From NCBI RefSeq assembly GCF_029504745.1, contig NZ_JAQFIQ010000039.1, positions 1 through 22,046 on the forward strand: DNA of 22,046 nucleotides, given 5' to 3'. The notes under the pieces are model-generated. The model did no database searches. It was not told the DNA's origin and saw only the letters and a program-made list of their open reading frames with translations. Both the position numbers and the translations under genes were made by a program. Shown piece by piece: positions 7,964 through 21,898 of the stretch; position 1 is the stretch's first letter, and each line of letters begins with the position of its first letter. The DNA is from Breznakia sp. PF5-3 (GTDB lineage Bacteria > Bacillota_I > Bacilli_A > Erysipelotrichales > Erysipelotrichaceae).

Positions 7964-8308
7964 CTAAAATTCATTTACATTTTCAAAATACTCAAGCTCT
8001 GGATTTATGATTGCTAAAAACTCTACAATTGCATTATTTTTCCCTGATTCAAATCCTATCTTTTGAATATATTCTTGTTTTTCAGTATTCATTTTCGAAG
8101 AAAAATTGACTACTTCTTTACAGTATTTATTTAAAAAGTCTTTTTCATCCATTACACTTATATCAATATATATTTTATTATAGGAATCTAGTTTCCCACA
8201 ATTGTATTCATATAAATCATCCTCAATATTTTGTGTTAGCTTTTTAAAATATTCTAATCGCAGTTCAACTACTTCTTTTAATGTGATTTTACCAATATTA
8301 TTTTTCAT
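7964..8308 (-). CDS. Hypothetical small protein (immunity-type candidate)
   Basis: The track ORF starts at a TTG (8326). The ATG at 8308 follows GGAGAG by about 10 nt. Confidence 0.6.
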   Translation of the reverse strand: MKNNIGKITLKEVVELRLEYFKKLTQNIEDDLYEYNCGKLDSYNKIYIDISVMDEKDFLNKYCKEVVNFSSKMNTEKQEYIQKIGFESGKNNAIVEFLAIINPELEYFENVNEF

Positions 8309-8479
8309 ATTTAATATTCTCTCCAAAATAAATCTTCATTTCTATTCACAAATTTTTGAATTTATCTTTTATACTAAATTCGTTGTTTTTTAAGTGCCAA
8401 TATTATGAGCAGTTACATCCAAGCTAATATAGCTAATTCTTTTTTATAAATCATTACGCACTTCTTCATAAATTTTAGT

Positions 8480-9187: not shown

Positions 9188-9235
9188 ATTATGTTCCCTT
9201 TCTATACATATACATTAGTAATTTCGATCAAAAAA

Positions 9236-9469
9236 TTAGTACTCCATACATTTTGGTCTATTCTCAAATTTTATTTCATCATATGTTGAAGTATCACTTG
9301 CTTTATTAACTATAGCTTCATTAATTCTTGTATATATTATTGACTTATTCCATTCCAATTCATTTTCAATTCCTTCGTCTACTATATCAATCTTTGCTAA
9401 CAAACCAAGCATCATAATTTCATTGCTTTCATTAAATTGGATTTTAATAGATATTGAGTTAATTTTCAT
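9236..9469 (-). CDS. Hypothetical 77-aa protein
   Basis: This track ORF starts 5 nt after the stop of the upstream gene and has a weak SD. Confidence 0.45.
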   Translation of the reverse strand: MKINSISIKIQFNESNEIMMLGLLAKIDIVDEGIENELEWNKSIIYTRINEAIVNKASDTSTYDEIKFENRPKCMEY

Positions 9470-9474
9470 TATAT

Positions 9475-9991
9475 CTACATCTGTAAAATAAGACTCTCTA
9501 AAAAAACTTCATTATTTATTTTTGATGGATCAATACTAATGTTAATTATACCCATACTATTTTCAATTTCTTCATAACTTATATTTAAAATTTGATTTTC
9601 ATCTAAATTTAAAAACAAATCTTCATAATCAAGATTAGTTTGACTATAATTAAACTTAACCTTGTAATTACCTTCAATTAAATAAATATTACCTTCTTGA
9701 TAATTAAAATCACATACGCTATCTTCAACCGCTATTTTTCCATTACTAATTGTTAGTTCAGAATCTTTTTTTTCAAAATCCGCAACCATTGACTTTGTAA
9801 TTCCTTCGCCTTTATTTGTATATTTAAAAAGATCAGACATCACAACATTAAAAGTAAGACTCTTTTTATGTTGCTCAACTAAATCAGAATATTTGATATA
9901 TAAATCCTTTTCATTATATTGCTCGTCAGATGTACTTTTAGTACACCCTATAAGCAATATAGCTAAAATCAATATGCTTACTTTTTTTCAT
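9475..9991 (-). pseudogene. Lipoprotein gene with a frameshift in its signal-peptide codons
   Basis: GGAGGAGAAC precedes the ATG at 9991. If the A-run (plus-strand T7 at 9982..9988) were one base shorter, the frame would read MKKVSILILAILLIGCTKS and join the 165-aa track ORF. Confidence 0.6.
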
Positions 9992-10128
9992 GTTCTCCTC
10001 CTTAAATTAATTATTACATTCGGCTATAACATTGCTATTTAATCCTGCTACCTGTATAACAGTATTTTTCTACTATCGATAATCCATAAACATCTCTCTT
10101 ATCTCAACATGTATATCGGTTATTGCTA

Positions 10129-10386
10129 CTATATATCACTCTTTATTTGTATTATTTCTTCCGCAACAGATAAAACTTTTCTCTCATCTATCTTGTATAG
10201 CGAAATTCCAAAATATTTGATGAATACTTCACCAATATATTGTGCGAGTTTAATTGAATCAACTCTTTTATTGAGTATTAGCCATTCTACTATTTTTTCT
10301 ATTTCTGGTTCATATTCATCCTCTAAAAGAGGCTGTATTTCAATTGGATTCCAATTATTTATTATTTGTGTAATTTGATTTTTCAT
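10129..10386 (-). CDS. DUF1871-like small protein
   Basis: SD AGGAGG lies 5 nt before the ATG. The pattern IINNWNPIEI....EDEYEPEIEKIV resembles DUF1871 from memory. Confidence 0.6.
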   Translation of the reverse strand: MKNQITQIINNWNPIEIQPLLEDEYEPEIEKIVEWLILNKRVDSIKLAQYIGEVFIKYFGISLYKIDERKVLSVAEEIIQIKSDI

Positions 10387-10718
10387 ACATCCTCCTTTTA
10401 TCTGCGTATATGCTGATTTTCTAACTATAATTCAGCCTAATATCTTCTTCCCAAATATCCTGTAATAAATCATTTTCAGTCATGTCATTATTCTTTTACT
10501 TACCTAATGGAATATAAAGTCTTCTAAGTCTACAGTAACTTTTAAATTATAATCACATCTTAAATCCTATATATTCAACTTCATCTTAAGCACGAAGTTG
10601 CGTGCCAATCACTTGTGTTTGTTTTTCTTTTTAAACTCTAATTTAGACGAAATACACCATAATTCTTCCTTAACATTATGTGTCAATTTGCTCTATCCTT
10701 ACGCTTAATTTCTTACTG

Positions 10719-11175
10719 TTAATTATCAGACTCACAAGTGAATCCAGATTTTTTTAAAGAATCAATAAACTCTTTTTCATTTTCCAAATTTCCAGTGGAA
10801 ATAATCAATGAATAATGTCGTGTTTGAAACGGATTATAATCTTTAGATATTTCAAAATCGTATGAAATAATAAGTTTATAATCCTCTTCTTGTTCTATAA
10901 ACTCTATCGTTTGTCCTTTTTGACTTTCATAGTTTTTGATATCTTCATTCATTTCTTCAAGAAATTTGCTTTTTTCTACCGCAACCTTATCATAAGGTTG
11001 TCTCCATGTTTCAATCATCTTACTTAGTTTTGAATTTTTATATGTTAAATTCAAACTAATTTCTGCTATATCATTGCTTTGTGAACATACATAATTGATT
11101 TCTGATTTTTCCCATATTTTTTTTATCGTTACAGCCACTAATAATAAGCATAAATATTATTATATATTTTTTCAT
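10719..11175 (-). pseudogene. Lipoprotein gene with a frameshift at an A8 run
   Basis: The ATG at 11175 gives MKKYIIIFMLIISGCNDKK (lipobox ISGC). This frame dies shortly after the run at 11117..11124. One base fewer would join it to the 139-aa track ORF (..IWEKSEINYV). Confidence 0.6.
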
Positions 11176-11391
11176 TTTATCCCTTTCTTATTTATAATCT
11201 AAAAATCCATTACTTTTAGTATATCATGCTATATAATTAACTGCCTTAGTTGGATTATACATTTTTGTTATTTATTCAGTTGATTATCATCATACGTATA
11301 CACTTTCATTATTTCCATCTTCTTTTACCTTATTCTTTCAATTTTCGTTTTCATTAAGTAGAATGGTTGATATTTAAAAAAAGAATTTTGG

Positions 11392-11892
11392 TTATTCTAA
11401 TTTCAATAATTCTTCTTTAAATTCTGTATCTTTCTTCATTTTTATATACCATAAAGTAGTTTTTCCATACATTGAAGTATCTACCGTTTTTTGCTTTAAA
11501 TGTATGTGATCTCCTTGGTAATTTACTGATACTTCCCCTAAATATAATCCAAATTCATATTCATAACGATCATGTGTTATGATTCCAGTATGCATATTTT
11601 TTTCTTCAGAAACAATTGGTGCATAACTTGAATAAATAATTCCCTTACTATCGTACAATGCAAAAATTGATAGGCTTTCATTTTTTTTCTGAACTATTTC
11701 TAAGTAAAAATTATTATCCGTCATAGAATCTATCATTTTATTATATTCAACATCATCAAAATCTCTCGTTAATTCATTAAATTCTGTTTCTACATATTGA
11801 CTAAGCCCCTGACTTTCATCATTAGATGTAGTAAAAATAGATACGATAATTAACAATAAAACTATTACAATAAATCTCTTCTTTAATTGCAT
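11392..11892 (-). CDS. Secreted or signal-anchored protein
   Basis: SD AGGAAGGA is present. The N-terminus MQLKKRFIVIVLLLIIVSIFTTSND is hydrophobic and has no lipobox Cys. Confidence 0.7.
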   Translation of the reverse strand: MQLKKRFIVIVLLLIIVSIFTTSNDESQGLSQYVETEFNELTRDFDDVEYNKMIDSMTDNNFYLEIVQKKNESLSIFALYDSKGIIYSSYAPIVSEEKNMHTGIITHDRYEYEFGLYLGEVSVNYQGDHIHLKQKTVDTSMYGKTTLWYIKMKKDTEFKEELLKLE

Positions 11893-11933
11893 ATTAATAT
11901 TTCCTTCCTATACAAAACTATATTTTTCTACTC

Positions 11934-12197
11934 TTACAATTTAGAGTTTTGCTGTATATTCCCTTTCACGTATCTTTCAAGATCACTTTTTATAATAGAA
12001 GAGTCTACTAGCATAATTTCTTCTTTTTTTACAGGAAAAACCTTACCAGTTGGATAAGCATCATTTTGAATAAATTCTATTTCAAAATTATCTTCATCAT
12101 ATATTTCTACTATTATTCCAAATGTTCCTTTTAGTACACCGATTGGTACATATTTATTTGTAATCAGTTGAATTGTATCATATAGCTTATATTTCAT
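11934..12197 (-). CDS. DUF4926-like small protein
   Basis: SD AAAGGAAG is present. The pattern KLYDTIQL....GVLKGTFGIIVEIYDEDNFEIEF resembles DUF4926 from memory. It lies directly 3' of a relic junction box. Confidence 0.6.
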   Translation of the reverse strand: MKYKLYDTIQLITNKYVPIGVLKGTFGIIVEIYDEDNFEIEFIQNDAYPTGKVFPVKKEEIMLVDSSIIKSDLERYVKGNIQQNSKL

Positions 12198-12220: not shown

Positions 12221-12240
12221 TCTACCCAGTCCAAGACAAC
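12221..12240 (-). repeat. Relic junction box with no toxin module behind it
   Basis: The minus strand reads AAATTAAGTTGTCTTGGACTGGGTAGATA. The 15138 copy has AAATTATTTTGTCTTGGATAGGGTTCGGATA. This relic runs straight into the SD of 11934..12197. Confidence 0.5.
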
Positions 12241-12247
12241 TTAATTT

Positions 12248-12592
12248 CTAATTATCAATCCACTTTTCCCTTGAAATCATTTGGCTTTCTTTATTTTTCA
12301 TTTGTTTTAATTTTTTGATTGCTAACTCTTTAATTTCATCAATTATTTCATTTAACTTATGAGGAATTAAGGATTCGTAATCTTCTAATTCCAACCCCAT
12401 ACTTATCAACTCTATAATATCTCTATCAATATCTAATTTTTTCAAAATAGAAATACTGTAGGGTGTAAATAAAGCAACTTCAGCATCTGTTATTGTAATG
12501 CACTCATGGCTCAAGGATTCCATGAGTCCAATAATATTAATTAATAAAAATTGTTGCACATCATTATATTCTTCTAAACTTATTTTTAACAT
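12248..12592 (-). CDS. Candidate immunity protein for orphan toxin 12628..12918
   Basis: This is a 114-aa ORF with SD AAGGAGG 5 nt before the ATG, 35 nt after the toxin stop. Confidence 0.65.
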   Translation of the reverse strand: MLKISLEEYNDVQQFLLINIIGLMESLSHECITITDAEVALFTPYSISILKKLDIDRDIIELISMGLELEDYESLIPHKLNEIIDEIKELAIKKLKQMKNKESQMISREKWIDN

Positions 12593-12627
12593 TGTTCCTC
12601 CTTATGGATTACTCCAAAAATATCCTC

Positions 12628-12918
12628 TTATTTTAAAATCAAAATTATTCCAGACCCACTTTGAAAATAGTGAAGTGTTATTTTTTCGTCAGATAAAGTA
12701 TATCCATCTTTATACACTTTATAGCGCTCCCCAGATTCTATTTGTCTCAAATAATTTAGTAGCTCTTTGTTATTAATTGTATTTTTGGTAGTTCCACTTT
12801 GTCTGTTTTGAAATCCTTCTGGATAATTTGGTGCATCCTTAATTGATTTATCTGTTTTCTTATTCGAATCCTGATCCAAATTATATATTTTAAATGGACT
12901 ATTGTTTTGTAACTCCTT
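12628..12918 (-). CDS. Orphan toxin C-terminal module (KVYKDGY...HYFQSGSG type), no ATG
   Basis: The frame is open from 12918, and the track calls it from a TTG inside the junction box (12879). The sequence PNYPEGF...ERYKVYKDGYTLSDEKITLHYFQSGSG resembles the C-terminal ends of Firmicute polymorphic toxins as I recall them. Confidence 0.55.
   Translation of the reverse strand, partial: KELQNNSPFKIYNLDQDSNKKTDKSIKDAPNYPEGFQNRQSGTTKNTINNKELLNYLRQIESGERYKVYKDGYTLSDEKITLHYFQSGSGIILILK
12859..12879 (-). repeat. Junction box, in-frame variant with one extra base
   Basis: The minus strand reads TTGGATCAGGATTCGAATAAG, translated as L-D-Q-D-S-N-K. Confidence 0.7.
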
Positions 12919-12954
12919 TTAGAAAAATATCTAATATTTCGGTATCTCTACATA

Positions 12955-13371
12955 CTATGAATTATACACATACATATCAAAATCAAAATCCGCCTGAACT
13001 TCATTGGCAAAAGATATAACTCTTTTTGATAAATATATTGATGGGTTTTGCTCATCCCATGTTTCAACAGCTATGATAAAATTACATTCTACATTTAATT
13101 CCTTTTTAAGTTCATTTATGATAACCGTCTTACTTTCAATCTTATTTATTATTTTCGTTATTTCCTCACCAATATCTAGTGTTTCTATAAACTCTCCTCC
13201 TAGAATCCAAGCACTACACTTTCTTTTTGCGTTTCGATTTTCAATAAAATCTCCTGTCTTCCATATTTTATCGGGTACTAGATTTAATTTATCACTAATT
13301 AACTGAGGATCAAATTTATCTCCACGAATTTCGAATTTAATCCTTGCATTTGTTTTTTTTAAATATTCCAT
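12955..13371 (-). CDS. DUF4279-like protein
   Basis: SD GGAGG is present. The patterns IKFEIRGDKFDPQLISDKLNLVP and ADFDFDMYVY fit the DUF4279 pattern from memory. Confidence 0.7.
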   Translation of the reverse strand: MEYLKKTNARIKFEIRGDKFDPQLISDKLNLVPDKIWKTGDFIENRNAKRKCSAWILGGEFIETLDIGEEITKIINKIESKTVIINELKKELNVECNFIIAVETWDEQNPSIYLSKRVISFANEVQADFDFDMYVYNS

Positions 13372-13431
13372 TCATAGCCTCCATCTTATTCAATATATTA
13401 CTTTTTTAAGAAAAAATACCTCTGTTAGAAT

Positions 13432-13465
13432 AAAAACGACACTTCCGGCTTCACGCAGAAGTCTA
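13432..13465 (-). terminator. Candidate Rho-independent terminator
   Basis: The minus strand reads ACTTCTG-cgtgaagc-CGGAAGT (7-bp stem with one G-U pair), then GTCGTTTTTATT. It is one of the few GC-rich patches in the window. Confidence 0.4.
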
Positions 13466-13601
13466 TAATTGAGCATCAAATTTATCCTTATAAATATTAT
13501 ATTTTGATATCTCTTTCTTTACGTAATCTGCTTTAAATTAATGTGAATCATATCATTACCCTTTAAGTATTTGTCACTTATTTATTTTTGATTTTTTGGT
13601 C

Positions 13602-13624
13602 CATTATCCCAACCCTATCTAAAA
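13602..13624 (-). repeat. Junction box (variant)
   Basis: The minus strand reads TTTTAGATAGGGTTGGGATAATG, followed only by decayed sequence. Confidence 0.7.
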
Positions 13625-13638
13625 ATCATCATTATTAA

Positions 13639-14124
13639 TTATATTATCGTATAGCCTATCGGTTGATCAAACTTTTCCAACTCCTCTGAAATCCATAATG
13701 CTTCATCCTCTCTTACCTTATGAAAACGTAATGTTGTGTATGGCGGCTCACAACTTATAATAAAACAAAATTCTGATTTCATATCAATTTTTTTTAACTT
13801 TAAACTCCAATTATCTATTAATAATAGAGCAATTTCTAATGATTCATCTACAGTAATATCATTTTCAATATAATCATTTACCCTTATCTCATTATTATTT
13901 GCTTCAAAACCTGTTTTGTCATTATAAATTTTTAATAATCTATTAAAATCATCAATGCTTAAATTAATATTTTGATTTTTAAAAACTATACAACCATATA
14001 TGTTTTCAAATCTGGGATTAAATAATTTTTTAAGATTATCCATTTTCATATTAATCAAATAAGCATCCTCAACCTTATGATTTATGTTAGCTAATATACT
14101 TCTAAATTTTTTATTACTTTTCAT
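13639..14124 (-). CDS. Candidate immunity protein
   Basis: The track ORF starts at a GTG (14133). The ATG at 14124 follows AAAGGTGA by 6 nt, and the SD overlaps the stop of the toxin fragment. Confidence 0.65.
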   Translation of the reverse strand: MKSNKKFRSILANINHKVEDAYLINMKMDNLKKLFNPRFENIYGCIVFKNQNINLSIDDFNRLLKIYNDKTGFEANNNEIRVNDYIENDITVDESLEIALLLIDNWSLKLKKIDMKSEFCFIISCEPPYTTLRFHKVREDEALWISEELEKFDQPIGYTII

Positions 14125-14135
14125 TTTATTCACCT

Positions 14136-14264
14136 TTAATATCCTAAATATTTTAATCCTTTTTCAATTGCATTTTTAATCCATGATTCTGTTAATAATT
14201 TATTGATTTTGGGAAGAGTTCTAATAAAGGTACTATTTTCACCTATTTTCTTATCCGACCCTGT
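14136..14264 (-). pseudogene. Short orphan toxin-CT fragment (42 codons) behind a junction box
   Basis: The frame TGSDKKIGENSTFIRTLPKINKLLTESWIKNAIEKGLKYLGY opens inside the box. It has no start codon and stops 11 nt before the immunity ATG. Confidence 0.4.
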
Positions 14265-14269
14265 CTAAA
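14250..14269 (-). repeat. Junction box (variant)
   Basis: The minus strand reads TTTAGACAGGGTCGGATAAG. Confidence 0.75.
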
Positions 14270-14288
14270 TAAACTTAATATTAAAAAT

Positions 14289-14314
14289 AAACATCTCATT
14301 GTAACAAAGTGTTC
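14289..14314 (-). repeat. Conserved post-immunity hairpin element (weakest copy)
   Basis: The minus strand reads GAACACTTtgttacaatGAGATGTTT followed by ATTTTT. It is homologous in sequence to the other two copies, but its stem is imperfect. Confidence 0.4.
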
Positions 14315-14337
14315 ATTTTTAGTTGTTTCACTATTTA

Positions 14338-14895
14338 TTACCAGTTTATTGTATCACTCCAAAATTTTATATGTTCAATTTTTTCAAATTTAATTCCGTT
14401 ATATTCTTTTATTCCAAATTCAATTTCTAAATATTGAAACAAATTTTTTCCATAGTAGATAATGTCTAAACCCATTATTGAAAAAATTGGAGGAGTTCCG
14501 TTTGTTACTGGAATGTATCTATGTATGTAGACTGGAATCAACTTAGGAGCTTCTTTAAGAAGCAATTCAATTTTTTTCTTCAATTCTTGATCAGTTTCAG
14601 GCCGTATTCCCCAGCCTTTTGGCCAATAATCAATTTCATCGCAATAGTTTATTATATCAATGAATGGAATATTCATTTTTTCTTTTATACGGTTAATATT
14701 TTCAGGTGTTAGATCTCTCCAATTGTAAAATCCTTTACTAACAGGGAGTCCTATTTTTAAAAATTCTATATATTCAATAGGAAAGGTAATATTATAAATC
14801 TTCTCAATTTCAATAATTTCTTGATTAGATAATCCTTTTTCAAATGCAACCCCCTTTTTAACCAGCTCTTTTTTTAACAATTTTAAATTTTGCAT
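14338..14895 (-). CDS. SUKH / SMI1-KNR4-like immunity protein
   Basis: SD GAGGTGA is present. LSNQEIIEIEKIYNITFPIEYIEFLK fits the SMI1/KNR4 N-terminal pattern from memory. Confidence 0.7.
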   Translation of the reverse strand: MQNLKLLKKELVKKGVAFEKGLSNQEIIEIEKIYNITFPIEYIEFLKIGLPVSKGFYNWRDLTPENINRIKEKMNIPFIDIINYCDEIDYWPKGWGIRPETDQELKKKIELLLKEAPKLIPVYIHRYIPVTNGTPPIFSIMGLDIIYYGKNLFQYLEIEFGIKEYNGIKFEKIEHIKFWSDTINW

Positions 14896-14950
14896 TTCTC
14901 ACCTCTGTCTATTTTATTCTAATAAATGTTCTGTAATGATCTGGTGTATA

Positions 14951-15149
14951 CTAAATCGAACCATCACCGCTCATAACCTCTTTTTCTAAGCCTATCTCTG
15001 CATTAGAATCGCTTGGATATAAATCATATTCTTTGTAATACCATTTGGAAATATCTATCTCTTTTTTGAAAAGTTTTATTGCCTTTATACCCATCTGATG
15101 GATTTCTATTTCTATTGCGGATTTTATCATTCAGTTTCTTATCCGAACC
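14951..15149 (-). pseudogene. Orphan toxin-CT module, frameshifted
   Basis: The box frame gives GSDKKLNDKIRNRNRNPSDGYKGNKTFQK, which then runs out of frame. The continuation EIDISKWYYKEYDLYPSDSNAEIGLEKEVMSGDGSI lies in another frame, and the switch maps to T6 at 15062..15067. Confidence 0.45.
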
Positions 15150-15158
15150 CTATCCAAG
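15138..15158 (-). repeat. Junction box
   Basis: The minus strand reads CTTGGATAGGGTTCGGATAAG. Confidence 0.85.
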
Positions 15159-15174
15159 ACAAAATAATTTATAT

Positions 15175-15683
15175 CTACATTATATCGACAAACAAACCTA
15201 ATTCTTCAATTTTTTTTATGCTATCCTTTTTTAAATAATTGCATACACAATACATATAATAATCATAGCCAAATTGAATTTTAAATTTCTTATCAATATC
15301 TACAAGTTCACACCATATTGATTCTCGCAAAATTAGAGTAGCAAATATCAGTGCTTCGTCTAAATCTAAAATCATTTCATTTTTTGCATCTATAAATATT
15401 TTTTTTGCTTTCAAATAAGGCATATCAAATAAATTTTTCTCAATTTCTTCAAAAGAAACATATTTCTCCATTTTTTTACAACAATATTCTTACAATTAAA
15501 GGTTTTAAAAATAATATTAATTGAATCCAAATAATTTTTTTCCATTCCTAAATATGTATCTAAACTTAATTTAGTTCCATTGAAAACTTTTCCAATCTCT
15601 CCTACCGAAATCCAATCATCTACAGTATATGCCCCGTTATCAGCTCTATACTCAGGATTATATTTTGTTATTCTAAATCTCAT
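15175..15683 (-). pseudogene. Candidate immunity gene split by a frameshift (track ORFs 15411..15716 and 15175..15471)
   Basis: The ATG at 15683 follows AAAGGA. MRFRITKYNPEYRADNGAYTVDDW is a family I have seen in Bacillus-type genomes. The two overlapping ORFs join as ..NIVVKKMEKYVSF if the run at 15471..15477 gains one base. Confidence 0.6.
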
Positions 15684-15705
15684 TTTGTTATCCTTTCTTT
15701 TATCA

Positions 15706-15941
15706 TTATGGCGCAATCCAATTTAAAAACTCATCATAGGTTCCCATCCTAGTATTTACACTTCCTAAAACCTTGATGGAACTTGCCATTTCCATGTTCC
15801 ACCACTATGTATATCTGCATCTGGGTTTATATACTTATTTCCTTTTTTGAATATTTTTTGACCATAAGAATATTGATTCGTATCCTTATATTCAAGTTTT
15901 TCTGTTGCTTCTTTATTGGTCATTAACTTCTTATCCGAACA
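15706..15941 (-). pseudogene. Orphan toxin-CT module (HSGGTWK...RMGTYDEFL type), frameshifted
   Basis: The frame opens in the box (CSDKKL) and has an ATG at 15923. It reads ..NPDADIHSGGTWKW and then stops at 15765. ASSIKVLGSVNTRMGTYDEFLNWIAP continues in another frame to 15706, and the switch maps to the AAA at 15789..15791. Confidence 0.55.
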
Positions 15942-15950
15942 CTATCCAAG
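15930..15950 (-). repeat. Junction box
   Basis: The minus strand reads CTTGGATAGTGTTCGGATAAG. Confidence 0.85.
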
Positions 15951-15976
15951 AATTTGATTTCATAATATACAAAATT

Positions 15977-16002
15977 AGACACTCCTCTATTGAAAAGTAC
16001 CT
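15977..16002 (-). repeat. Conserved post-immunity hairpin element
   Basis: The minus strand reads AGGTACT-tttcaatagagg-AGTGTCT. The stem holds only if G-U pairs are allowed. It lies 14 nt after the stop of 16016..16354 and 26 nt before the box. Confidence 0.45.
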
Positions 16003-16015
16003 AATTTTTTATAAA

Positions 16016-16354
16016 TTAAATGCCAAAATGAATTATATATTTTTTTTCTTTTATAGCTTCTTCAATCAATTCTATTAGTTTTTTCACTTCACTTTTATTC
16101 TCATCTTTTATTACAACATTTAAGAATTCCAAAAGTGATTTTGGTGGAATAAGTGTTACTCCATAACGTGCCAACCCTTCATTAGGCCTATTTAAGTTAT
16201 GCCAAAACGTTGGTATTTTTTCCAAGTTGGAAACCCATTCATTAACAAAATCATCTGAAATTTTTATAACGTCATAATTTTTTGAACTTTTCATACCATA
16301 ATCAATATTATTTTCGATATTTGCTATAATTGCAAATTTATTGTATGGTCCCAT
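16016..16354 (-). CDS. Candidate immunity protein
   Basis: This is a 112-aa ORF with SD AAGGAG, and its ATG lies 18 nt after the toxin stop. Confidence 0.7.
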   Translation of the reverse strand: MGPYNKFAIIANIENNIDYGMKSSKNYDVIKISDDFVNEWVSNLEKIPTFWHNLNRPNEGLARYGVTLIPPKSLLEFLNVVIKDENKSEVKKLIELIEEAIKEKKYIIHFGI

Positions 16355-16372
16355 AATTTATTGTCTCCTTAC

Positions 16373-16642
16373 TTATTGTGCTCCAAATGATACTATTGAA
16401 CCATCTGGTGCTATATCAATATACTTTCCATTTTTCTTGTATCTAATAACTCCTTCTACAAATCCATCAACTTTTGACTTCGTGGCTCCCTTCAAAATCT
16501 TTGAGAATTCCACTGCTTTATTTAAATAATTTTGCTTACTTGCTGCGTCCACTTCTGCACCATGCTCGGTATAATGGTAATCTAAAGAGGATTGTAAGCT
16601 ATCAAAACTCCCTTTACTCCAATGACTATCCGCAGAATATGA
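16373..16642 (-). CDS. Orphan toxin-CT module (putative RNase-like), no start codon
   Basis: This is an 89-codon open frame: SYSADSHWSKGSFDSLQSSLDYHYTEHGAEVDAASKQNYLNKAVEF...YIDIAPDGSIVSFGAQ. It has no ATG or SD and is out of frame with its junction box. Confidence 0.55.
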   Translation of the reverse strand, partial: SYSADSHWSKGSFDSLQSSLDYHYTEHGAEVDAASKQNYLNKAVEFSKILKGATKSKVDGFVEGVIRYKKNGKYIDIAPDGSIVSFGAQ

Positions 16643-16664
16643 TTATTTTCGAACCTGTCTAAAA
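16643..16664 (-). repeat. Junction box (variant)
   Basis: The minus strand reads TTTTAGACAGGTTCGAAAATAA. Confidence 0.65.
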
Positions 16665-16690
16665 TTTTGGTTTCAAATTATCTAAACATT

Positions 16691-16716
16691 GGACACTCAC
16701 CCATAAAAAGTGTTCC
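16691..16716 (-). repeat. Conserved post-immunity hairpin element (possible weak terminator or RNA stabiliser)
   Basis: The minus strand reads GGAACACT-ttttatgggtg-AGTGTCC. It starts 28 nt after the stop of 16744..17757 and lies 26 nt before the junction box. Confidence 0.5.
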
Positions 16717-16743
16717 ATACTACGTTACTTTACAAGTATAACT

Positions 16744-17757
16744 CTATTTTGTTAAATAATCTTCTATATTAAAACCTTCATCAACTTCAAAATCTTTTTC
16801 TGAATATAATTTTAATTCTTCATTCAATTTATCGATCACGTGATAAATTACATATGCTCTACTTTCTTCCAAATCGAAATCTAAATTCCCATACATATTT
16901 TTTAATCTTTTATAAATTGCTTCTGCTTGTACTGTATTTACACTCTCATATGTTGATGTAGGATGAAAAATATCCTCGATATTATTATTACCTTCTAATA
17001 TTGCTTCCTTATTATCATGTGCATTAATAATTTCTATAAGTTTATCTAATTCTTCTATATAACTATCAAAATCATTGTAAAAAAGCACTCTAAAATACAT
17101 TGGCAAATAATTACTAGCATTTTCATCTAAGTCTATATCGGGATTATCTAAAATATATTCGAAGTTTTTTTGAGGAGAATATAATTTAATCATTGCTTTA
17201 GAATCGACAACCATATTGAATGTTTCCATTTTATCATTAAAATAAATATCTATTGTTACATTTTTTAAATCATATTTCTCTTTATCATTTATAAATGCTT
17301 CATTGATATCGATATCTTCTATTGAAAAACTCTTCAGTTTTACAAAAGTTGTTGAATCATAAATCAAGTTTTCTAAATCATCCAGTGTTACAGTATTAAT
17401 TTCACAAGAATTATTGTTGATTTCACAATAACTAATATCTATTTTATTAATCACTTCGTATTTTTTGCCTTTTAAAACTAGATCAAATGTACACTCTTTA
17501 CTATTATATGGATCATACCAGATATATTTCATATCTAACGCTTTTCCTTCAACTATTAGTTCAGGAGATTCTTTATAAAATCGGTCTATTTCTTTTTTTT
17601 CTGTTTCGCTCACTTTCTCAGTTAACTTTATTTCCGTTAACTGTTCATTTTCAATGATATTTTTTATAAAAACTAAAACTATACATCCTAAAATAAAAAT
17701 TAAGACTATCCCTAAAATAATAAAATCCTTTTTTACTCTACTTTCATGTTTACTCAT
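16744..17757 (-). CDS. N-terminally membrane-anchored protein of unknown function
   Basis: This is a 337-aa ORF with an AGGAG SD. DFIILGIVLIFILGCIVLVFI is a single transmembrane segment. Confidence 0.75.
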   Translation of the reverse strand: MSKHESRVKKDFIILGIVLIFILGCIVLVFIKNIIENEQLTEIKLTEKVSETEKKEIDRFYKESPELIVEGKALDMKYIWYDPYNSKECTFDLVLKGKKYEVINKIDISYCEINNNSCEINTVTLDDLENLIYDSTTFVKLKSFSIEDIDINEAFINDKEKYDLKNVTIDIYFNDKMETFNMVVDSKAMIKLYSPQKNFEYILDNPDIDLDENASNYLPMYFRVLFYNDFDSYIEELDKLIEIINAHDNKEAILEGNNNIEDIFHPTSTYESVNTVQAEAIYKRLKNMYGNLDFDLEESRAYVIYHVIDKLNEELKLYSEKDFEVDEGFNIEDYLTK

Positions 17758-17985
17758 TTTTTCTCCTATTTTAGATTATGTATATTTCTATTTCATTCCA
17801 CTTGTATCTTTTTTAATTCCATTATACAACAATATAACATAAAATTAATCTGATCGTTTTCTATAATTAATAAATTCTATCAACCATTAAAAAGCTCTTA
17901 AACAATTTTAAAAATAATACGTTAGTATAGATTCAAAATTTAGGTTAAGCAAATCTAGAATAGCCTATTTTTTATTTCTTGATTT

Positions 17986-18365
17986 CTAGCTGATTGGTTT
18001 TATATTTCCTTTATCCCATTCTTTAAGAAACATTTCTGCATTAAATCTAAATAGAGGATGATACTCATCATTATTTTTTACTTCCTCTAATTTTTCTCTT
18101 GCTAACTTAGAAGAAATATTGAGTTTAAGCATTTGTGCACTACATGTTATCAATGTACTTGGACTTATTGTTGTATTAAGAATTTCGTTATAAAAGATTT
18201 CTCTATCCTTTAGACTACTTTTTTTGCTATTTCAAATATTTTTTCTAATTTTTTAAATGCTTTATTACTACTTTTACTATCACCACTTAAAGTTGATTTA
18301 TCTTTACATTCTCCAAGACTTAAAAAAACATTTAAATAATCATATAATTTTTTTTCATTTTCCAT
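17986..18365 (-). pseudogene. DUF2019-like immunity gene, frameshifted
   Basis: GGAGACAAT precedes the ATG at 18365. MENEKKLYDYLNVFLSLGE...IAKK then stops. SSLKDREIFYNEIL...AREKLEEV...FNAEMFLKEWDKGNI continues in another frame. The switch maps to T7 at 18219..18225. Confidence 0.55.
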
Positions 18366-18456
18366 ATTGTCTCCTATAATTTAAACATTACAGTATAATT
18401 CCATATTTTTAAAATATCTGTCCCGTATTGATATCTTGCTCTAAAAAACACCATTT

Positions 18457-19410
18457 TTATCCATCCTCCGACAAACTTATATATCTACAAATTTCTACAT
18501 CATTATTATTTTCAAAAATCACCATATTTGTTTCTCTAATAAAATCCATATTGTTTATTGGAATCCTCCCTTTATAGGTGTCAACAATATCAAGCGTATC
18601 AGGATTAATAATATTTATTTTACCAAGTACCTCATATTTATCAATAACCTTAAAATTATTCAATGATATAATTTTTATTTCCCCATCTATCTCATACATT
18701 AAATAATTACTTTTTTCATTTATTACAAAATCAATTGGCGTTGTTCTATCTATTGTTTTATCAAAATAAACTATTTTCATATTTTTTTTAATTGATACAT
18801 GTTTTTTCCCAGAAATAACTAGATATTTCAAAGACTTGTAATACTTGAAAATGTCATCATTAGAACTAAAAACATCTAATTCTACTAAATCATTTTGTGC
18901 CAAATAAAATGATTTAGTCATAAATTTTTTTGACTTCATTGGCAATTCAGTTGTTACAATAAAATAAGTCTTTTCCGTATTCAATCTACTGATTACATGT
19001 AGTTTTGAATCAAGTGATTGTTCCATAATTTTTTCTTCATCGCAGTTCCATTGTATTAATTTATTTTTATGCTTTTCCCCCTCAAAATAAGAAAATTGAA
19101 GATACATTTTATTTGATACCATTGTTATAACATCCATTGTTATGCTATCTTCCATTAATTCTAATACTTTTTCTACAGAATCATTAATAAAATCTATTTT
19201 TAATACATAATGATTATTGAAAAATACAAATAAACAATTATCATCTTCAGAAAAACACCCAGCAGAAGGGTAATCTATTCTTAATTCATATATTTTTTCA
19301 TTGCTTGAATTATAAACCCTTACATACTTGGCAACATAAAGGGCGTATAACCCTTTACTATATGATGTTGCCAATAAAGAAGTCCTCCTATATTTTTTAA
19401 TAAGCTTCAT
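18457..19410 (-). CDS. Beta-rich repeat protein, paralog of 1444..2385
   Basis: The second ATG (19410) is 8 nt from AGGAG. The 250 nt at the 5' end differ from the paralog at only about 8 positions by eye. Confidence 0.75.
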   Translation of the reverse strand: MKLIKKYRRTSLLATSYSKGLYALYVAKYVRVYNSSNEKIYELRIDYPSAGCFSEDDNCLFVFFNNHYVLKIDFINDSVEKVLELMEDSITMDVITMVSNKMYLQFSYFEGEKHKNKLIQWNCDEEKIMEQSLDSKLHVISRLNTEKTYFIVTTELPMKSKKFMTKSFYLAQNDLVELDVFSSNDDIFKYYKSLKYLVISGKKHVSIKKNMKIVYFDKTIDRTTPIDFVINEKSNYLMYEIDGEIKIISLNNFKVIDKYEVLGKINIINPDTLDIVDTYKGRIPINNMDFIRETNMVIFENNNDVEICRYISLSEDG

Positions 19411-19455
19411 TTGCATTCTCCTTCACTACCTTTATTTTTTTATTAGTTCCAAACT

Positions 19456-19597
19456 TTATTCCTTAATAGTTTGTAAATCTATCATATATCTTTCTGAATC
19501 TAAAAATTCTACTTCATAAATAAAATAACCTCGTCTGTATATACAATGACTCCTTCCATATTCCTTTTAATTTTACCATGAATATCTTTAGTTACTA
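19456..19597 (-). pseudogene. Decayed toxin-CT remnant behind a junction box
   Basis: No frame stays open across this region. The pieces KVVTKDIHGKIKRNMEGVIVYTDEVILFMK and RGYFIYEVEFLDSERYMIDLQTIKE lie in different frames. Confidence 0.3.
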
Positions 19598-19619
19598 CTT
19601 TCCGAACTCTATCCAAAAA
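19598..19619 (-). repeat. Junction box
   Basis: The minus strand reads TTTTTGGATAGAGTTCGGAAAG. Confidence 0.75.
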
Positions 19620-19708
19620 GTTCACCATCAATTATATAAAAAGAATCAATTCTTAGCTTCAATAATGAGCTAGAACTGAGGCTTTCTTCAATGCTTTAAT
19701 AACTGTAA

Positions 19709-20089
19709 TTAGTAATCAGTTGGATAGGCCTTAATTTTTAAGATTTTGATTTGAATAATACTGTTGATAGGAAATGCTTTCCCCTCAGTAATAAAAGTAA
19801 TAATACTGTTATTTAAACGTAGTACAGTAAATCCATCACTATCAGTTTCTTCTAATTTGCCTTGAATTACAATATCATCTTGTATTTGTCTAATCTGAAG
19901 CGTATTGTTTGTTGCTAATGATATATCTGTATTCCAAGTTAGATTTTTATCAATGTCTAATTCAACATCTACTTCTGCACCAATTACTGGTAACTCACCA
20001 TCCCAAATGACATTGAATTCTCCATACTTTGATTTAACCCGTATATTTCTTTTTTGTTTATTATTATATGATAAAATTTTTAACTCCAT
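19709..20089 (-). CDS. Candidate immunity protein
   Basis: The track ORF is over-extended. The ATG at 20089 (MELKILSYNN) follows TAAGGAG, and that SD overlaps the toxin stop at 20100. Confidence 0.7.
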   Translation of the reverse strand: MELKILSYNNKQKRNIRVKSKYGEFNVIWDGELPVIGAEVDVELDIDKNLTWNTDISLATNNTLQIRQIQDDIVIQGKLEETDSDGFTVLRLNNSIITFITEGKAFPINSIIQIKILKIKAYPTDY

Positions 20090-20099
20090 TTGTTTCTCC

Positions 20100-20426
20100 T
20101 TATGGTATGATTCTTTGTAATATATTGGACACATTCATAACATCATTTACAGAGTCATAGGTCCATGTTTCAAAGTGAAAGTGACCTTTTGGAGTACCCA
20201 TGCTTCCCATTTCATGATTTCCAAATCGAATACTTCTTGTTCCATCTGCAGAGAATATTCGATTATTATCAACAAGTCCAGTTCGTGGATTTATATTAGT
20301 TTGGTTTTTACCTAAATAATTATCCCATGAATTTACAACATCGGATGATTTCATTGCATTTGGTGCTTTAGTTTCAGGTAATGTATTAACTTTCGTATTA
20401 GCACTTGGTTGATGATTCCCCGAACC
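20100..20426 (-). CDS. Orphan toxin-CT module with a His-rich metal-site-like motif
   Basis: The frame opens in the box (GSGNHQPSANTKV...), and the track ORF starts at an internal ATG (20354) with no SD. The motif is SIRFGNHEMGSMGTPKGHFHFETW. Confidence 0.6.
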   Translation of the reverse strand, partial: GSGNHQPSANTKVNTLPETKAPNAMKSSDVVNSWDNYLGKNQTNINPRTGLVDNNRIFSADGTRSIRFGNHEMGSMGTPKGHFHFETWTYDSVNDVMNVSNILQRIIP

Positions 20427-20437
20427 CTATCCAAAAA
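20414..20437 (-). repeat. Junction box
   Basis: The minus strand reads TTTTTGGATAGGGTTCGGGGAATC. Confidence 0.8.
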
Positions 20438-20467
20438 CTAGTTTAAATCATTTTTATATTTATTATA

Positions 20468-20767
20468 TCAAAATAAGGCTTTTATACTCATTTCATTCCA
20501 ACAATCAATAAAAAAATCACCATCTGTTCTTCCCTGAACAATAACACTCCAAATATCATTAAAGCGTTCAGTACTATCTTCAAAAGAGAAAAGAATTTTA
20601 TTATCTAAATGAGTTATGCTTATACTCTTATTATTATATATTAATTCTATTTCCCTTCCCATTTCAATCAGTTTCATTAGCGCAGCAATCGAATGATTGT
20701 TTAGTAGTTCCTTTGTTAACGCCTCATGTAATATTATGTTGTTTCTTTTAATTTCTTCTTTATTCAT
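20468..20767 (-). CDS. Candidate immunity protein
   Basis: The ATG at 20767 (MNKEEIKRNN) lies 4 nt after the toxin stop, and the SD AAGGGAG sits inside the last toxin codons. The track ORF start (20860) is an over-extension. Confidence 0.7.
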   Translation of the reverse strand: MNKEEIKRNNIILHEALTKELLNNHSIAALMKLIEMGREIELIYNNKSISITHLDNKILFSFEDSTERFNDIWSVIVQGRTDGDFFIDCWNEMSIKALF

Positions 20768-20771
20768 TTTT

Positions 20772-21137
20772 TTACTCCCTTGGTGGATTTTTTGTCCAAT
20801 CCAAATAATGTTCATGTGGAAATATATGGTTATTGTTAGGATCATTATGTTTAAAATCAATATCTTTAATTACATTTCCATTCTCATCATAAAATCTTCG
20901 TTGTAGTAATTCCTTAGTATTTTTATCATAAAGGTCTGTACTTGAATTAGGTTCCCCTTTCGTATCCAAATTATCATGTGAATCCCCATATTTATCAGTG
21001 TGATTATTCATTTTATCTGTTTGCTTTTTCCAATCAGCATTCGAACCCTTATTCTTGTTTTTAGAATTTTCTGAATCACTTGATGTTGTAGAGTTAGAAT
21101 TCAACTGTGTATTTGTCTTATTCTTGCGCCTTCTTAA
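20772..21137 (-). CDS. Orphan toxin-CT module retaining about 30 codons of low-complexity linker
   Basis: The frame is open from 21137, and the track uses a TTG at 21104. It reads NSNSTTSSDSENSKNKNK-GSNADW..., then RRFYDENGNVIKDIDFKHNDPNNNHIFPHEHYLDW. The junction box is read in frame at 21038..21057. Confidence 0.6.
   Translation of the reverse strand, partial: LRRRKNKTNTQLNSNSTTSSDSENSKNKNKGSNADWKKQTDKMNNHTDKYGDSHDNLDTKGEPNSSTDLYDKNTKELLQRRFYDENGNVIKDIDFKHNDPNNNHIFPHEHYLDWTKNPPRE
21038..21057 (-). repeat. Junction box, in-frame variant
   Basis: The minus strand reads CAAGAATAAGGGTTCGAATG. This is read as N-K-G-S-N inside the open frame of 20772..21137. Confidence 0.55.
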
Positions 21138-21241: not shown

Positions 21242-21898
21242 CTATTTAAATGGATATTTCATTTTTTTAATATTTTCGTCAATATTGGATTTAAGAAAAT
21301 CCATACAAGCTCTTTCGTCATGAAATACCATTTTAGGTATTTCACTTAATTCTTTTCTATTTAGATCAATAAAATAAAAATCTTTTTCATTTTCGTTTAA
21401 AATATCAAAATTTTCTATAGTATAATCATAGTTTTTTTTAGCTTCTCTATAATTTTTGCTATGTAAATTTATAAGGATTTTTATATAGTGTTGGAAAAAC
21501 AAAATTTTATCTTCACTTAATTTTATTATCTCTTTAGAATCTTTAAATTTATTAAATTCTGGAATGATTTTTTCTTTGATAATATTATAAAAATCATCAA
21601 ATGCTTTTTCGCAATCTGCCTCTGTTTCTAATGGCCACCAATGATCTTTTCCATAAACTAATTGTCCAAACCTTCTACTTGTTTCGAATCGAGTTGCTAA
21701 ATATGGTTGATATAATAAAGAAAAACCGTAATTTCCTGTTACCTCTTTTCCATCGCTGAATCGCTGTATATGAATCTCTTCAACAACATCATACTCTGTT
21801 TTTCTCACAAAAAAGGTTGATTTCCATTTTTGAAATCCTAATTCCTTCATCTTTTTCGTAAATACTCGCATCTGCTTATTATATATTTTTGTATCCAT
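21242..21898 (-). CDS. DUF4304-like immunity-type protein, paralog of 4560..5213
   Basis: The ATG at 21898 (MDTKIYNKQMRVF) follows GAGGGGGA. The 22 extra codons in the track ORF have no SD. Confidence 0.7.
   Translation of the reverse strand: MDTKIYNKQMRVFTKKMKELGFQKWKSTFFVRKTEYDVVEEIHIQRFSDGKEVTGNYGFSLLYQPYLATRFETSRRFGQLVYGKDHWWPLETEADCEKAFDDFYNIIKEKIIPEFNKFKDSKEIIKLSEDKILFFQHYIKILINLHSKNYREAKKNYDYTIENFDILNENEKDFYFIDLNRKELSEIPKMVFHDERACMDFLKSNIDENIKKMKYPFK

Follow-up and report, generated by a model that had tools for sequence, protein, structure and literature searches.

A putative orphan toxin-CT/immunity stack in Breznakia sp. PF5-3, with a short repeat that may be the vestige of a pre-CT joint

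Background

In their standard form, polymorphic toxin loci are arrays of toxin cassettes that lie next to immunity genes (PMC3482391), and orphan toxin-CT/immunity modules of the Rhs/WapA, CdiA, MafB and LXG kinds were catalogued by Zhang et al. 2012 (PMC3482391). Such orphan modules are activatable in Salmonella (PMC3967940). A further example, locus L001 (ENA ERZ14864627 NODE_3505), features an RHS gene followed by orphan cassettes. Here, we present an analysis of the complete 22-kb contig (the window) of Breznakia sp. PF5-3, an insect-gut Firmicute of the Erysipelotrichaceae, in which a short box recurs at the 5' ends of small gene cassettes. The window is probably the distal part of a polymorphic-toxin locus, with a stack of orphan toxin-CT/immunity modules in which the box is a vestige of the pre-CT joint of the parent toxin.

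The box repeat

The box is a real repeat of about 24 nt on the minus strand, with the consensus TTTTGGATAGGGTTCGGATAAGAA, and occurs far above chance (Table 1). In a PWM scan of the window, every copy fell on the minus strand, all in direct orientation, and none lay outside 12.2-21.1 kb. Allowing up to three mismatches to the 20-mer consensus, four matches were observed against 0.00 expected, and in an unsupervised repeat search a single multi-copy family of short repeats (D5) emerged, made up of the five copies used for the PWM. These five strong copies (b2, b3, b5, b6 and b8) score 27.6-34.8 bits with the PWM, values that are partly circular as the PWM was trained on them; no other site in the window exceeds 10.4, and the maximum in shuffled sequence averages 9.6 bits. 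Additionally, b4 and b7 are indel variants of the form TTTAGACAGG(G/T)TCG, and b9 is an open-frame variant carrying one extra base. The remaining copies, b1 and the relic b10, are weak and doubtful, with b1 having GGGTTCGAAT alone in common with the consensus and scoring under the PWM threshold.

All ten box strings quoted in a preceding sequence-only reading of the window were found at their minus-strand coordinates, but a fairer count than its nine copies plus a relic is seven good copies, one open variant and two doubtful copies. The sequence 3' of the box was described there as unrelated between copies, and conservation indeed ends after GGATAAGAAA; we also agree that the box is neither VENN nor PxxxxDPxGL. 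Nor is it common elsewhere, as an exact-pattern search through 185,579 species genomes and 241 million metagenome records turned up nothing beyond single, chance-level matches in unrelated contexts.

The box occurs in an open and a closed version. The open version, present in b9 and in a metagenomic relative (L018), encodes L-D-Q-G/D-S-(D/N/E)-K; in L018, an independent metagenome contig, CTT GAT CAG GGA TCG GAA reads L-D-Q-G-S-E in frame with a T1 homologue. In seven closed copies, one base is missing from the GATCAG spot, which breaks the frame and places a TAG one or two codons before Gly-Ser, and on reading the sequence b9 and b6 are one indel and two substitutions apart. Among the 24 T2 homologues with N-terminal extensions, most have [E/K/S]-G-[T/S/G] 3-12 residues before the domain, and many T9 homologues also have a Gly-Ser/Thr joint motif, e.g. 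SSEGTGNVPKNVY and IEGTNRSGGELKHVY; a joint of this type before toxin domains is general.

Table 1. Coordinates of the boxes, toxin modules, immunity candidates and neighbouring genes in the window, from the contig end downstream on the minus strand.
Feature	Coordinates	Strand	Description	Remarks
DUF4304 gene	21242..21898	-	Immunity-type	Preceded by last 11 toxin codons, cut by contig end
T1	20772..21137	-	Toxin-CT ORF, appears intact	Annotated 110-aa protein, TTG start
b1	21038..21057	-	Weak box copy AAGAATAAGGGTTCGAATG	Frame open, reads K-N-K-G-S-N
Imm1	20468..20767	-	99-aa immunity candidate	SD overlaps T1 end
b2	20414..20437	-	Strong closed box TTTTTGGATAGGGTTCGGGGAATC	Consensus scan, PWM, repeat finder
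T2	20100..20426	-	Toxin-CT, intact domain, no start codon	TAG directly upstream
Imm2	19709..20089	-	126-aa immunity candidate	T2-Imm2 pair also in L001 at 10001-10897
b3	19598..19619	-	Strong closed box TTTTTGGATAGAGTTCGGAAAG	PWM, repeat finder
Small gene after b3	19456..19631	-	Frameshifted, not toxin	Weakly DUF4926-like (E = 0.062)
317-aa gene	18457..19410	-	Immunity-island gene	Paralogue at 2385-1444 (repeat family D1)
337-aa gene	16744..17757	-	Membrane-anchored protein	No assigned family
b4	16643..16664	-	Box variant TTTTAGACAGGTTCGAAAATAA	Sequence reading, copy comparison
T4	16373..16642	-	Toxin-CT, intact but start-less domain	Out of frame with b4
Imm4	16016..16354	-	112-aa immunity candidate	
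b5	15930..15950	-	Strong closed box CTTGGATAGTGTTCGGATAAG	Consensus scan, PWM, repeat finder
T5	15765..15941	-	Ntox21 toxin-CT, truncated or frameshifted	Pfam PF15526
Imm5	15175..15683	-	Immunity candidate split in two	Frameshift at A7 run (15477-15471)
b6	15138..15158	-	Consensus closed box CTTGGATAGGGTTCGGATAAG	Consensus scan, PWM, repeat finder
T6	14915..15149	-	Barnase-like RNase CT, two frameshifts	PF00545
Imm6	14338..14895	-	SUKH/SMI1-KNR4-like	PF09346, E = 5e-4, below curated cutoff
b7	14250..14269	-	Box variant TTTAGACAGGGTCGGATAAG	Copy comparison
T7	14136..14264	-	Toxin remnant, 42 codons	Starts TGSDKK
Imm7	13639..14124	-	161 aa	PF27221 (precomputed annotation)
b8	13602..13624	-	Strong closed box TTTTTAGATAGGGTTGGGATAATG	Consensus scan, PWM, repeat finder
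Imm8	12955..13371	-	DUF4279	Pfam PF14106, E = 6e-25
b9	12859..12879	-	Open box TTG GAT CAG GAT TCG AAT AAG	L-D-Q-D-S-N-K
T9	12602..12918	-	Toxin-CT without first ~7 domain residues	Frameshift near 3' end
Imm9	12248..12592	-	DUF3969	Pfam PF13108, E = 5e-28
b10	12221..12240	-	Weak relic GTTGTCTTGGACTGGGTAGA	Sequence reading, copy comparison
DUF4926 gene	11934..12197	-	Directly after relic b10	Pfam PF16277, E = 3e-7
Box-free downstream half	1..11933	-	Small immunity-like and lipoprotein genes only	Polyimmunity-like layout

Toxin and immunity modules

The modules that follow the boxes are, as judged from their homologues, genuine polymorphic-toxin C-terminal domains, and the earlier proposal that the box-proximal ORFs resemble the C-termini of large exported proteins was borne out for T9, T2 and T4 by their homologues, for T5 by Ntox21 and for T6 by its barnase-like profile. 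T9 has 215 homologues of up to 3686 aa, in which the match covers the last ~75 residues, always at the protein C-terminus, on scaffolds of the RHS (P0155), PT-HINT (P0124), LXG-like (P0129) and VENN-like (P0243) types. T2 has 60 homologues, some on RHS ends (P0014, P0048 and P0055 are RHS-end fragments), those of T4 include RHS (P0077) and PT-HINT (P0082, P0085, P0086) proteins, and some homologues of both are fragments opening with the RHS core end or PT-HINT. T5 matches its Pfam profile with E = 1.4e-8 over positions 3-45 of 71, and the repaired T6 sequence matches PF00545 with E = 0.0013, a family also found in its L001 homologue (8638-8832). T1 has two outside homologues only, both orphan cassettes. 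AF2 models were obtained with a pLDDT of 92.7 for T2 and 86.8 for T9, and comparison of the T2 model with the PDB gave no match.

A start-less ORF with its frame beginning in the box, the arrangement put forward by the sequence-only reading, was seen for T2, T5, T6, T7 and T9. Three cassettes depart from it: what comes after b3 is a decayed DUF4926-like gene and after b8 only debris, and T4 and b4 lie in different frames with a stop between them. Most toxins have decayed by frameshift or truncation and most immunity genes are intact, a pattern in which the toxin modules are evidently decaying. The sequence-only reading is corrected on these points: two boxes are weak, three cassettes have another layout, and most toxin modules are pseudogenes. 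The broader proposal of orphan toxin-CT and immunity modules of a polymorphic toxin system is supported, having come through two of three refutation tests set in advance.

Reading of the sequence also confirmed that the immunity ORFs have their own SD, which lies near the toxin stop or overlaps it. In L017 and L018, the T1 homologues are followed by partner genes homologous to Imm1, and an Imm6 homologue comes after the RNase in L001. Upstream of Imm8 lie toxin debris and a terminator (13462-13441). Immunity-type families in the window include SUKH, DUF4279, DUF3969, DUF4304 and DUF4926, and on these assignments the partner genes are of immunity type.

Interpretation of the box

On the reading that we favour, the one-directional stack would consist of displaced ('orphan') toxin C-terminal modules, each with its own immunity gene after it. 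Lacking both a start codon and a delivery domain, the toxin modules would be silent; most are decaying by frameshift and truncation or already lost, with the downstream 12 kb keeping immunity-type genes only. The immunity genes, with their own ribosome-binding sites and mostly intact, are presumably expressed and most likely protect against the corresponding toxins from neighbours. The ~24-nt box would be the remnant of a short joint between each toxin domain and the large delivery protein that once carried it, with the open box L-D-Q-G/D-S-(D/N/E)-K leading through a Lys/Asn-rich linker into the toxin domain. We infer that a parent gene carrying the box exists; where a full-length gene has this joint, a stored module could recombine into it in frame at the box, and such recombination probably takes place there. 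The seven closed-box cassettes, with a broken frame and a TAG, would be dead as toxin donors.

The lack of boxes in the toxin-free half of the array counts for a tie between box and toxin. Within the 22-kb contig, which extends 148 nt beyond the first immunity gene on the upstream side, there is no full-length gene with the box. Several points count against a joint vestige. Both box edges are sharp, at the same nucleotides in several cassettes; the displaced orphans of L001, by contrast, keep ~150-400 nt of constant region, and those of Rhs and CDI systems retain longer constant-region stretches. The same one-base loss in five copies, from which it follows that the closed box was propagated after breakage or homogenised, is unpredicted by simple serial displacement from an intact parent. 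Further, the junction is not always at a domain boundary (T9, T7), b3 and b10 adjoin DUF4926-type genes, and 24 nt is short for RecA-dependent exchange.

The strong A+T richness of the genome, the weakness of b1 and b10 and the fragmented assembly could suggest a biologically meaningless repeat that arose by chance, from low complexity or in the assembly, but this is effectively refuted by the match counts and bit scores given above (the latter from a PWM built from the same copies), by the identical sequence in three contigs from independent assemblies and one Logan assembly, and by the related box of L018. The box is unlikely to act as core site in a site-specific cassette system (integron, rAID-1 or shufflon-like) with its recombinase off the contig, which would excise and insert box-toxin-immunity units and, with the site at the fusion point, plug them in frame into a delivery gene. 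Such a system would fit a sharply bounded element found at the same place in every cassette between unrelated flanks, a shared one-base lesion showing that the box spreads as a unit, variable junction points within toxin domains (T7, T9) and a hairpin that ends several cassettes 17-35 nt upstream of the next box, and it has a precedent in the repeat-delimited orphan immunity arrays of Bacteroidales with a XerD-like recombinase (bioRxiv 10.1101/471110). However, recombinase, integrase and transposase genes are all absent from the 22 kb, and the box, on reading the sequence, has no dyad symmetry and no match to the attC core GTTRRRY. The copies are all direct, making switching by inversion impossible, indels separate them inside the would-be core, and the box-free immunity-only half fits neutral decay rather than maintained sites.

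We consider it very improbable that the box is an expression signal and not a coding relic. On that view, every cassette mRNA would open with a conserved leader or a protein-binding site that governs either the immunity gene downstream or a non-canonical start of the toxin. TATAAT-like hexamers were read within ~30 nt upstream of five boxes, but they lie anywhere between 0 and 27 nt from the box, their like is common in DNA of 74% A+T, and a promoter scan gives fewer sites than shuffled sequence. Terminators before several boxes would call for a separate promoter per cassette, and b5, b6 and b7 each have two GGATA motifs 11 nt apart, but b2, b3 and b8 have no second GGATA and a search of Rfam gave no match. 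Further, the toxin domains share the frame of the box's 3' half, whose counterpart in L001 is coding sequence (E-G-T-G-N).

Comparison with known systems

With orphan polymorphic-toxin modules, the Breznakia locus shares one-directional stacks in which every start-less C-terminal toxin module has a cognate immunity gene, toxin domains that occur on many delivery scaffolds, modules whose 5' edge is marked by a short conserved sequence, and silent toxins beside expressible immunity genes. It differs in that the joint is not VENN or PxxxxDPxGL, spans only ~24 nt and has sharp edges, that most boxes have a frame-breaking one-base loss leading to an in-frame TAG, that no parent gene lies within the contig, and that such loci are little described in the host family Erysipelotrichaceae. 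The T2-immunity pair (85% identity) and the RNase-SUKH pair are both present in L001 as orphans behind the RHS gene, in equal orientation and cassette density. In contrast, the L001 cassettes come after a ~250-nt non-coding repeat and a ~60-codon shared pre-toxin segment (...KIASQKWIPKW...GDAIVESV), and the Breznakia box was looked for in L001 and is absent.

The cassette density, earlier thought unusual, is not, being similar in L001, and in rAID-1 arrays up to 31 genes are packed into 16 kb (bioRxiv 10.1101/471110). The rAID-1 arrays of Bacteroidales (Ross et al., bioRxiv 10.1101/471110) are likewise long co-directional orphan immunity arrays with repetitive intergenic sequences and a low-GC, horizontally acquired appearance, but they belong to a different phylum and are defined by a 5' XerD-like recombinase, which the Breznakia window does not have, and the Breznakia repeats stand at toxin 5' ends and are partly coding. 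As in heterogeneous polyimmunity loci (PMC3482391), the stretch at 1-11.9 kb consists of co-oriented small immunity-type and lipoprotein genes without toxin cassettes; unlike in those loci, toxin cassettes interrupt 12.2-21.1 kb, which by the criterion of Zhang et al. (PMC3482391) makes this a regular polymorphic toxin locus and not a polyimmunity locus. The locus is of a known kind, with a new, lineage-specific, previously undescribed and mostly broken junction.

Toxin and immunity modules

The account best supported by our analysis is that the array consists of displaced toxin C-terminal (CT)/immunity modules, stacked one after another, from a polymorphic toxin locus. The toxin modules (T1, T2, T4-T7 and T9, numbered after the junction boxes that they follow) are stop-to-stop open reading frames (ORFs) that start at or in the box and have no start codon, and no LXG, RHS or signal domain is encoded upstream of the modules in the window. 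On sequence reading, the gene after each toxin module (Imm1, Imm2, Imm4-Imm7 and Imm9) bears its own Shine-Dalgarno sequence, and several of these partners fall into immunity-type families, namely SUKH, DUF4279, DUF3969, DUF4304 and DUF4926. The toxin-immunity pairings are conserved in three outside loci: L001, a metagenome RHS locus with orphan cassettes (ENA ERZ14864627 NODE_3505), L017 and L018.

The sequence-only reading had taken the box-proximal ORFs for toxin C-termini, and the homologues of T9, T2 and T4, together with the Ntox21 identity of T5 and the barnase-like character of T6, tie them to the C-termini of large secreted toxins. Of the 1.8 billion library proteins, 215 matched T9, each at its extreme C-terminus; they are between 64 and 3686 aa in length, and their upstream parts include RHS repeats (P0155), PT-HINT (P0124), an LXG-like N-terminus (P0129), a VENN-like filament (P0243) and PT-TG (P0117). 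Several of the 60 homologues of T2 begin with the RHS core end YAYCxNNPVxxYDPxG, and homologues of T4 follow RHS (P0077) and PT-HINT (P0082, P0085, P0086). T6 is barnase-like after repair of its frameshifts, and its homologue in L001 carries PF00545. T1 has two outside relatives only, each an orphan cassette, and its link to large secreted toxins is thus not seen. Given these CT homologues and the following genes with their own Shine-Dalgarno sequences, several of them of immunity type, the interpretation of the array as toxin-CT plus immunity cassettes, also put forward from the sequence alone, is well supported. Only T1, T2 and T4 contain intact-looking toxin domains; the state of the other modules is summarised in the table. 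Near the end of T9, the alternate frame reads SGNNFDFKIRGYFWSNP and agrees with the family consensus.

T2 and T9 represent widespread families that occur C-terminally on RHS, HINT and LXG-like proteins. AlphaFold2 models of both were confident (pLDDT 92.7 for T2 and 86.8 for T9), and their comparison with PDB folds gave no match (best Foldseek E > 0.6, TM < 0.46); PDB sequence searches returned nothing meaningful. The invariant residues of the T2 family are H71-E72-M73, K80 and H82. Locus L019 of another organism has a T2-type cassette immediately behind an IS110-family transposase gene, and it contains a DUF4926 gene as well.

Features of the box array, its surroundings and the outside loci, with coordinates where available
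Feature	Coordinates	Description
b2, b3, b5, b6, b8		strong box copies (alignment)
b4, b7		variant box copies of the form TTTAGACAGG(G/T)TCG (alignment)
b9		box with one extra base (alignment)
b1, relic b10		weak box copies (alignment)
GATC in open box b9	12873-12876	lacks C in five closed copies, T in two
T2	20426-20100	toxin module
T4	16642-16373	toxin module; frame differs from that of b4
T5		truncated
T6		two frameshifts
T7		42-codon stub
Downstream of b8		debris and terminator
T9	12918-12602	lacks first ~7 domain residues; frameshift near end
Downstream of b3	19456-19631	decayed, weakly DUF4926-like gene; no toxin
Downstream of relic b10	11934-12240	DUF4926-type small gene; no toxin module
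A7 run in Imm5	15471-15477	frameshift giving 90-aa and 98-aa ORFs
DUF4304 gene, two copies	21242-21898; 4560-5213	duplicated in contig
313-317-aa gene, two copies	18457-19410; 1444-2385	duplicated in contig
Split small gene	17986-18365	51-aa and 48-aa ORFs, between 317-aa and 337-aa genes
Lipoprotein genes, box-free half	758-11190	at least six predicted lipoproteins
L001 element	3700-3960; 5680-5900; 9790-10010	~250-nt conserved non-coding element before three cassettes
L019 cassette	1436-2644	T2-type

The junction box

All ten box strings quoted in the sequence-only reading were located where it had placed them. With up to three mismatches, the 20-mer consensus TTGGATAGGGTTCGGATAAG gives 4 matches in the window versus 0.00 expected. 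A position weight matrix trained on five copies gives them 27.6-34.8 bits, which is partly circular since the same copies served for training, while the next best site in the window reaches 10.4 and the maximum in shuffled sequences averages 9.6. An unsupervised repeat search returned the same five sites as the sole multi-copy short repeat family (D5). The conserved stretch runs from a T-run to GGATAAGAAA, approximately 24-26 nt, with abrupt loss of conservation at either edge. Every copy is a direct repeat on the minus strand, with no plus-strand copy, and the whole set falls within 12.2-21.1 kb.

The box did not prove to be common elsewhere: exact-pattern scans with the closed (frame-broken) and open (read-through) forms gave 13 chance-level matches in 185,579 GTDB species genomes, none of them in Breznakia, and 20 chance-level matches in 241 million metagenome records. 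In both scans these were single matches in unrelated contexts, and the most box-like metagenome match (L041) is antisense within a phosphatase gene. Judged from these scans, the box at the DNA level is apparently specific to the lineage of Breznakia sp. PF5-3.

Read in the toxin frame, b2, b5 and b6 carry ...GGA TAG GGT TCG GAT AAG..., i.e. a stop followed by Gly-Ser-Asp-Lys. With its extra C, b9 reads TTG GAT CAG GAT TCG AAT AAG (L-D-Q-D-S-N-K) and is open; one indel and two substitutions separate it from b6, where an ungapped alignment costs seven substitutions. In L018, CTT GAT CAG GGA TCG GAA (L-D-Q-G-S-E) precedes the T1 homologue in frame, directly after a terminator hairpin. Since both b9 and the box of L018, an independent metagenome contig, are open, we take the open form L-D-Q-G/D-S-(D/N/E)-K, in DNA TTGGATCAGGGTTCGGATAAG or similar, as ancestral. 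The five strong copies have lost the C of GATCAG (giving GATAGG), and b4 and b7 the T (giving GACAGG); in each case the frame is broken and a TAG comes to stand one or two codons ahead of Gly-Ser. As one specific lesion occurs in five copies, breakage of the box must have preceded its copying or homogenisation.

Several other explanations of the box were considered and rejected. Selection against GATC is too mild to account for the lost base, the tetranucleotide occurring 26 times in the window versus 45-54 expected, an approximately 2-fold deficit. Programmed frameshifting or stop readthrough at the box lacks an upstream ORF and a slippery heptamer, and the use of TAG as a normal stop, e.g. 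at 21242, counts against readthrough. An origin of GGTTCGAAT from a tRNA T-arm or att site was dismissed since the complementary stem is absent. The box is not the N-terminus of DUF4926, the weak Pfam match to which begins downstream of the box, nor is PT-TG the source of the joint, as P0117 has it ~40 residues upstream and P0001 lacks it.

Among the T2-type and T9-type homologues (P0001-P0058 and P0102-P0250), [E/K/S]-G-[T/S/G]-x-[K/N] recurs 3-12 residues before the toxin domain on differing scaffolds. Examples of the joint are SEGTGNYRPS, VKGTGKIPTS, AVDKGSS and SSEGTGNVPKNVY, and the 3' half of b2 can be aligned with the L001 codons for E-G-T-G-N. With comparable joints in homologues of other organisms, a Gly-Ser/Thr joint is thus widespread in such modules, and this motif, of which we found no description, may serve Firmicute polymorphic toxins generally as a joint or a processing site.

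Contig and array setting

The window is identical to the whole contig JAQFIS010000042.1 (22,045 nt) of assembly GCA_029504795.1, has a G+C content of ~26% and carries every gene on the minus strand; no paper mentioning its accession numbers was found in the literature. Only 148 nt separate the first complete gene from the upstream end of the contig, so the data stop at 22046 and any parent gene, encoding the large delivery protein assumed to have once carried the toxin CT, lies beyond. The downstream 12 kb contain only small immunity-like and lipoprotein genes, and as boxes and toxin modules are both absent there, the box was lost along with the toxin rather than retained with the immunity gene.

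The two gene families duplicated within the contig span 80-92% nucleotide identity. The 317-aa gene has a further, third copy (P0063) on another contig, of 18.5 kb, in the same genome, which therefore has at least two related arrays; the related second array probably accounts for the assembly break at 22046. The 51-aa product of the split small gene is carried in identical form by five contigs, including the second array. The split of Imm5 points either to a pseudogene or to a tract prone to slippage. Signal peptides of the predicted lipoproteins in the box-free half end in L-x-G/S-C, and two of these proteins match DUF1307, which suggests that they confer immunity to toxins acting outside the membrane.

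Origin of the array

On the best-supported account, that of displaced modules of a polymorphic toxin locus, defence is why the immunity genes, presumably expressed, are kept, and the toxin parts, putatively toxic as modules, are silent and decaying. The box would be a vestige of the pre-CT joint of the parent toxin, and an open box could serve as an in-frame crossover point for recombination with the parent gene. The published template for polymorphic toxin loci fits such stacking (PMC3482391), and recombination has been demonstrated to activate an orphan Rhs module (PMC3967940). The sharp edges of the box, identical in several cassettes, its very short length and the lesion shared by five copies fit serial displacement poorly and may point to another array-building route.

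Together with joints at different depths within the toxin domain (T7, T9) and two boxes abutting DUF4926-type genes, these three features leave room for a model of site-specific cassettes, comparable to integrons or to the rAID-1 arrays of Bacteroidales, which are recombinase-associated (bioRxiv 10.1101/471110). It is held back by the lack of a recombinase gene in the 22 kb, although the array 5' end lies beyond the contig, by a box with neither dyad symmetry nor an attC-type core, by the direct orientation of every copy and by the missing boxes in the older, immunity-only half. In its full form, where the 24-nt box would be the core site of a Gram-positive integron-like toxin/immunity cassette system, an off-contig recombinase would move box-toxin-immunity units and the in-frame TAG would silence stored copies, we regard the model as improbable; as the site coincides with the point of protein fusion, cassettes, once captured, could then plug in frame into a delivery scaffold. 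Weaker still is the idea that the box is a transcript leader or promoter element, against which speak promoter-like sites neither enriched nor fixed in position, no match of the box in Rfam and the coding 3' half of the box. Displacement from a polymorphic toxin locus is preferred, and the site-specific model is kept alive beside it.

Comparison with known systems

In Rhs/WapA proteins the core-end motif PxxxxDPxGL (DPxG) stands directly ahead of the variable CT, and in CdiA, of contact-dependent inhibition, the VENN (PT-VENN) motif marks the CT start. In the window, no box encodes either motif or has one upstream (checked in any frame for VENN), so the junction is neither Rhs- nor CdiA-type, as the sequence-only reading had stated; DPxG is present in the outside homologues P0014, P0077 and P0143. 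LXG/T7SSb toxins have an N-terminal LXG domain on the parent with T7SS genes nearby, and the window contains neither. Arrays of the rAID-1 or integron-like kind have a tyrosine recombinase (XerD-like or IntI) at the array 5' end, and integron attC sites, found at cassette 3' ends, are imperfect inverted repeats whose core is GTTRRRY, whereas the box reads GTTCGGA and lacks dyad symmetry. Shufflons have inverted ~19-bp repeats flanking alternative C-terminal segments plus the Rci recombinase, unlike the uniformly direct boxes here, with no recombinase in the window.

A concrete likeness is L001, from a different organism, where orphan T2-immunity and RNase-SUKH pairs matching those of the window come after an RHS gene, but the leader shared by its cassettes is far longer and the Breznakia box is missing. 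The L001 element consists of a terminator hairpin and then an A+T-rich stretch; two of the three cassettes behind it go on to carry ~60 shared hydrophobic pre-toxin codons (KIASQKWIPKWTRE...GDAIVESV), a segment that the main RHS gene lacks. The density of nine cassettes in 9 kb, earlier considered unusual, is not exceptional for such loci.

Stacks of orphan toxin/immunity genes are thought to be a reservoir for changing contact-dependent weapons and to collect defences against neighbours, a picture here extended to insect-gut Erysipelotrichaceae. The locus also draws attention to the widespread C-terminal toxin domain families of RHS, HINT and LXG-like proteins, T2 and T9 among them being without a Pfam or NCBIfam model or a PDB structural match. 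By the criteria tested, it works like, and belongs to, the orphan toxin-CT/immunity arrays: its architecture is familiar, and its joint, LDQGS(D/N)K, is previously undescribed, unusually short and mostly inactivated.
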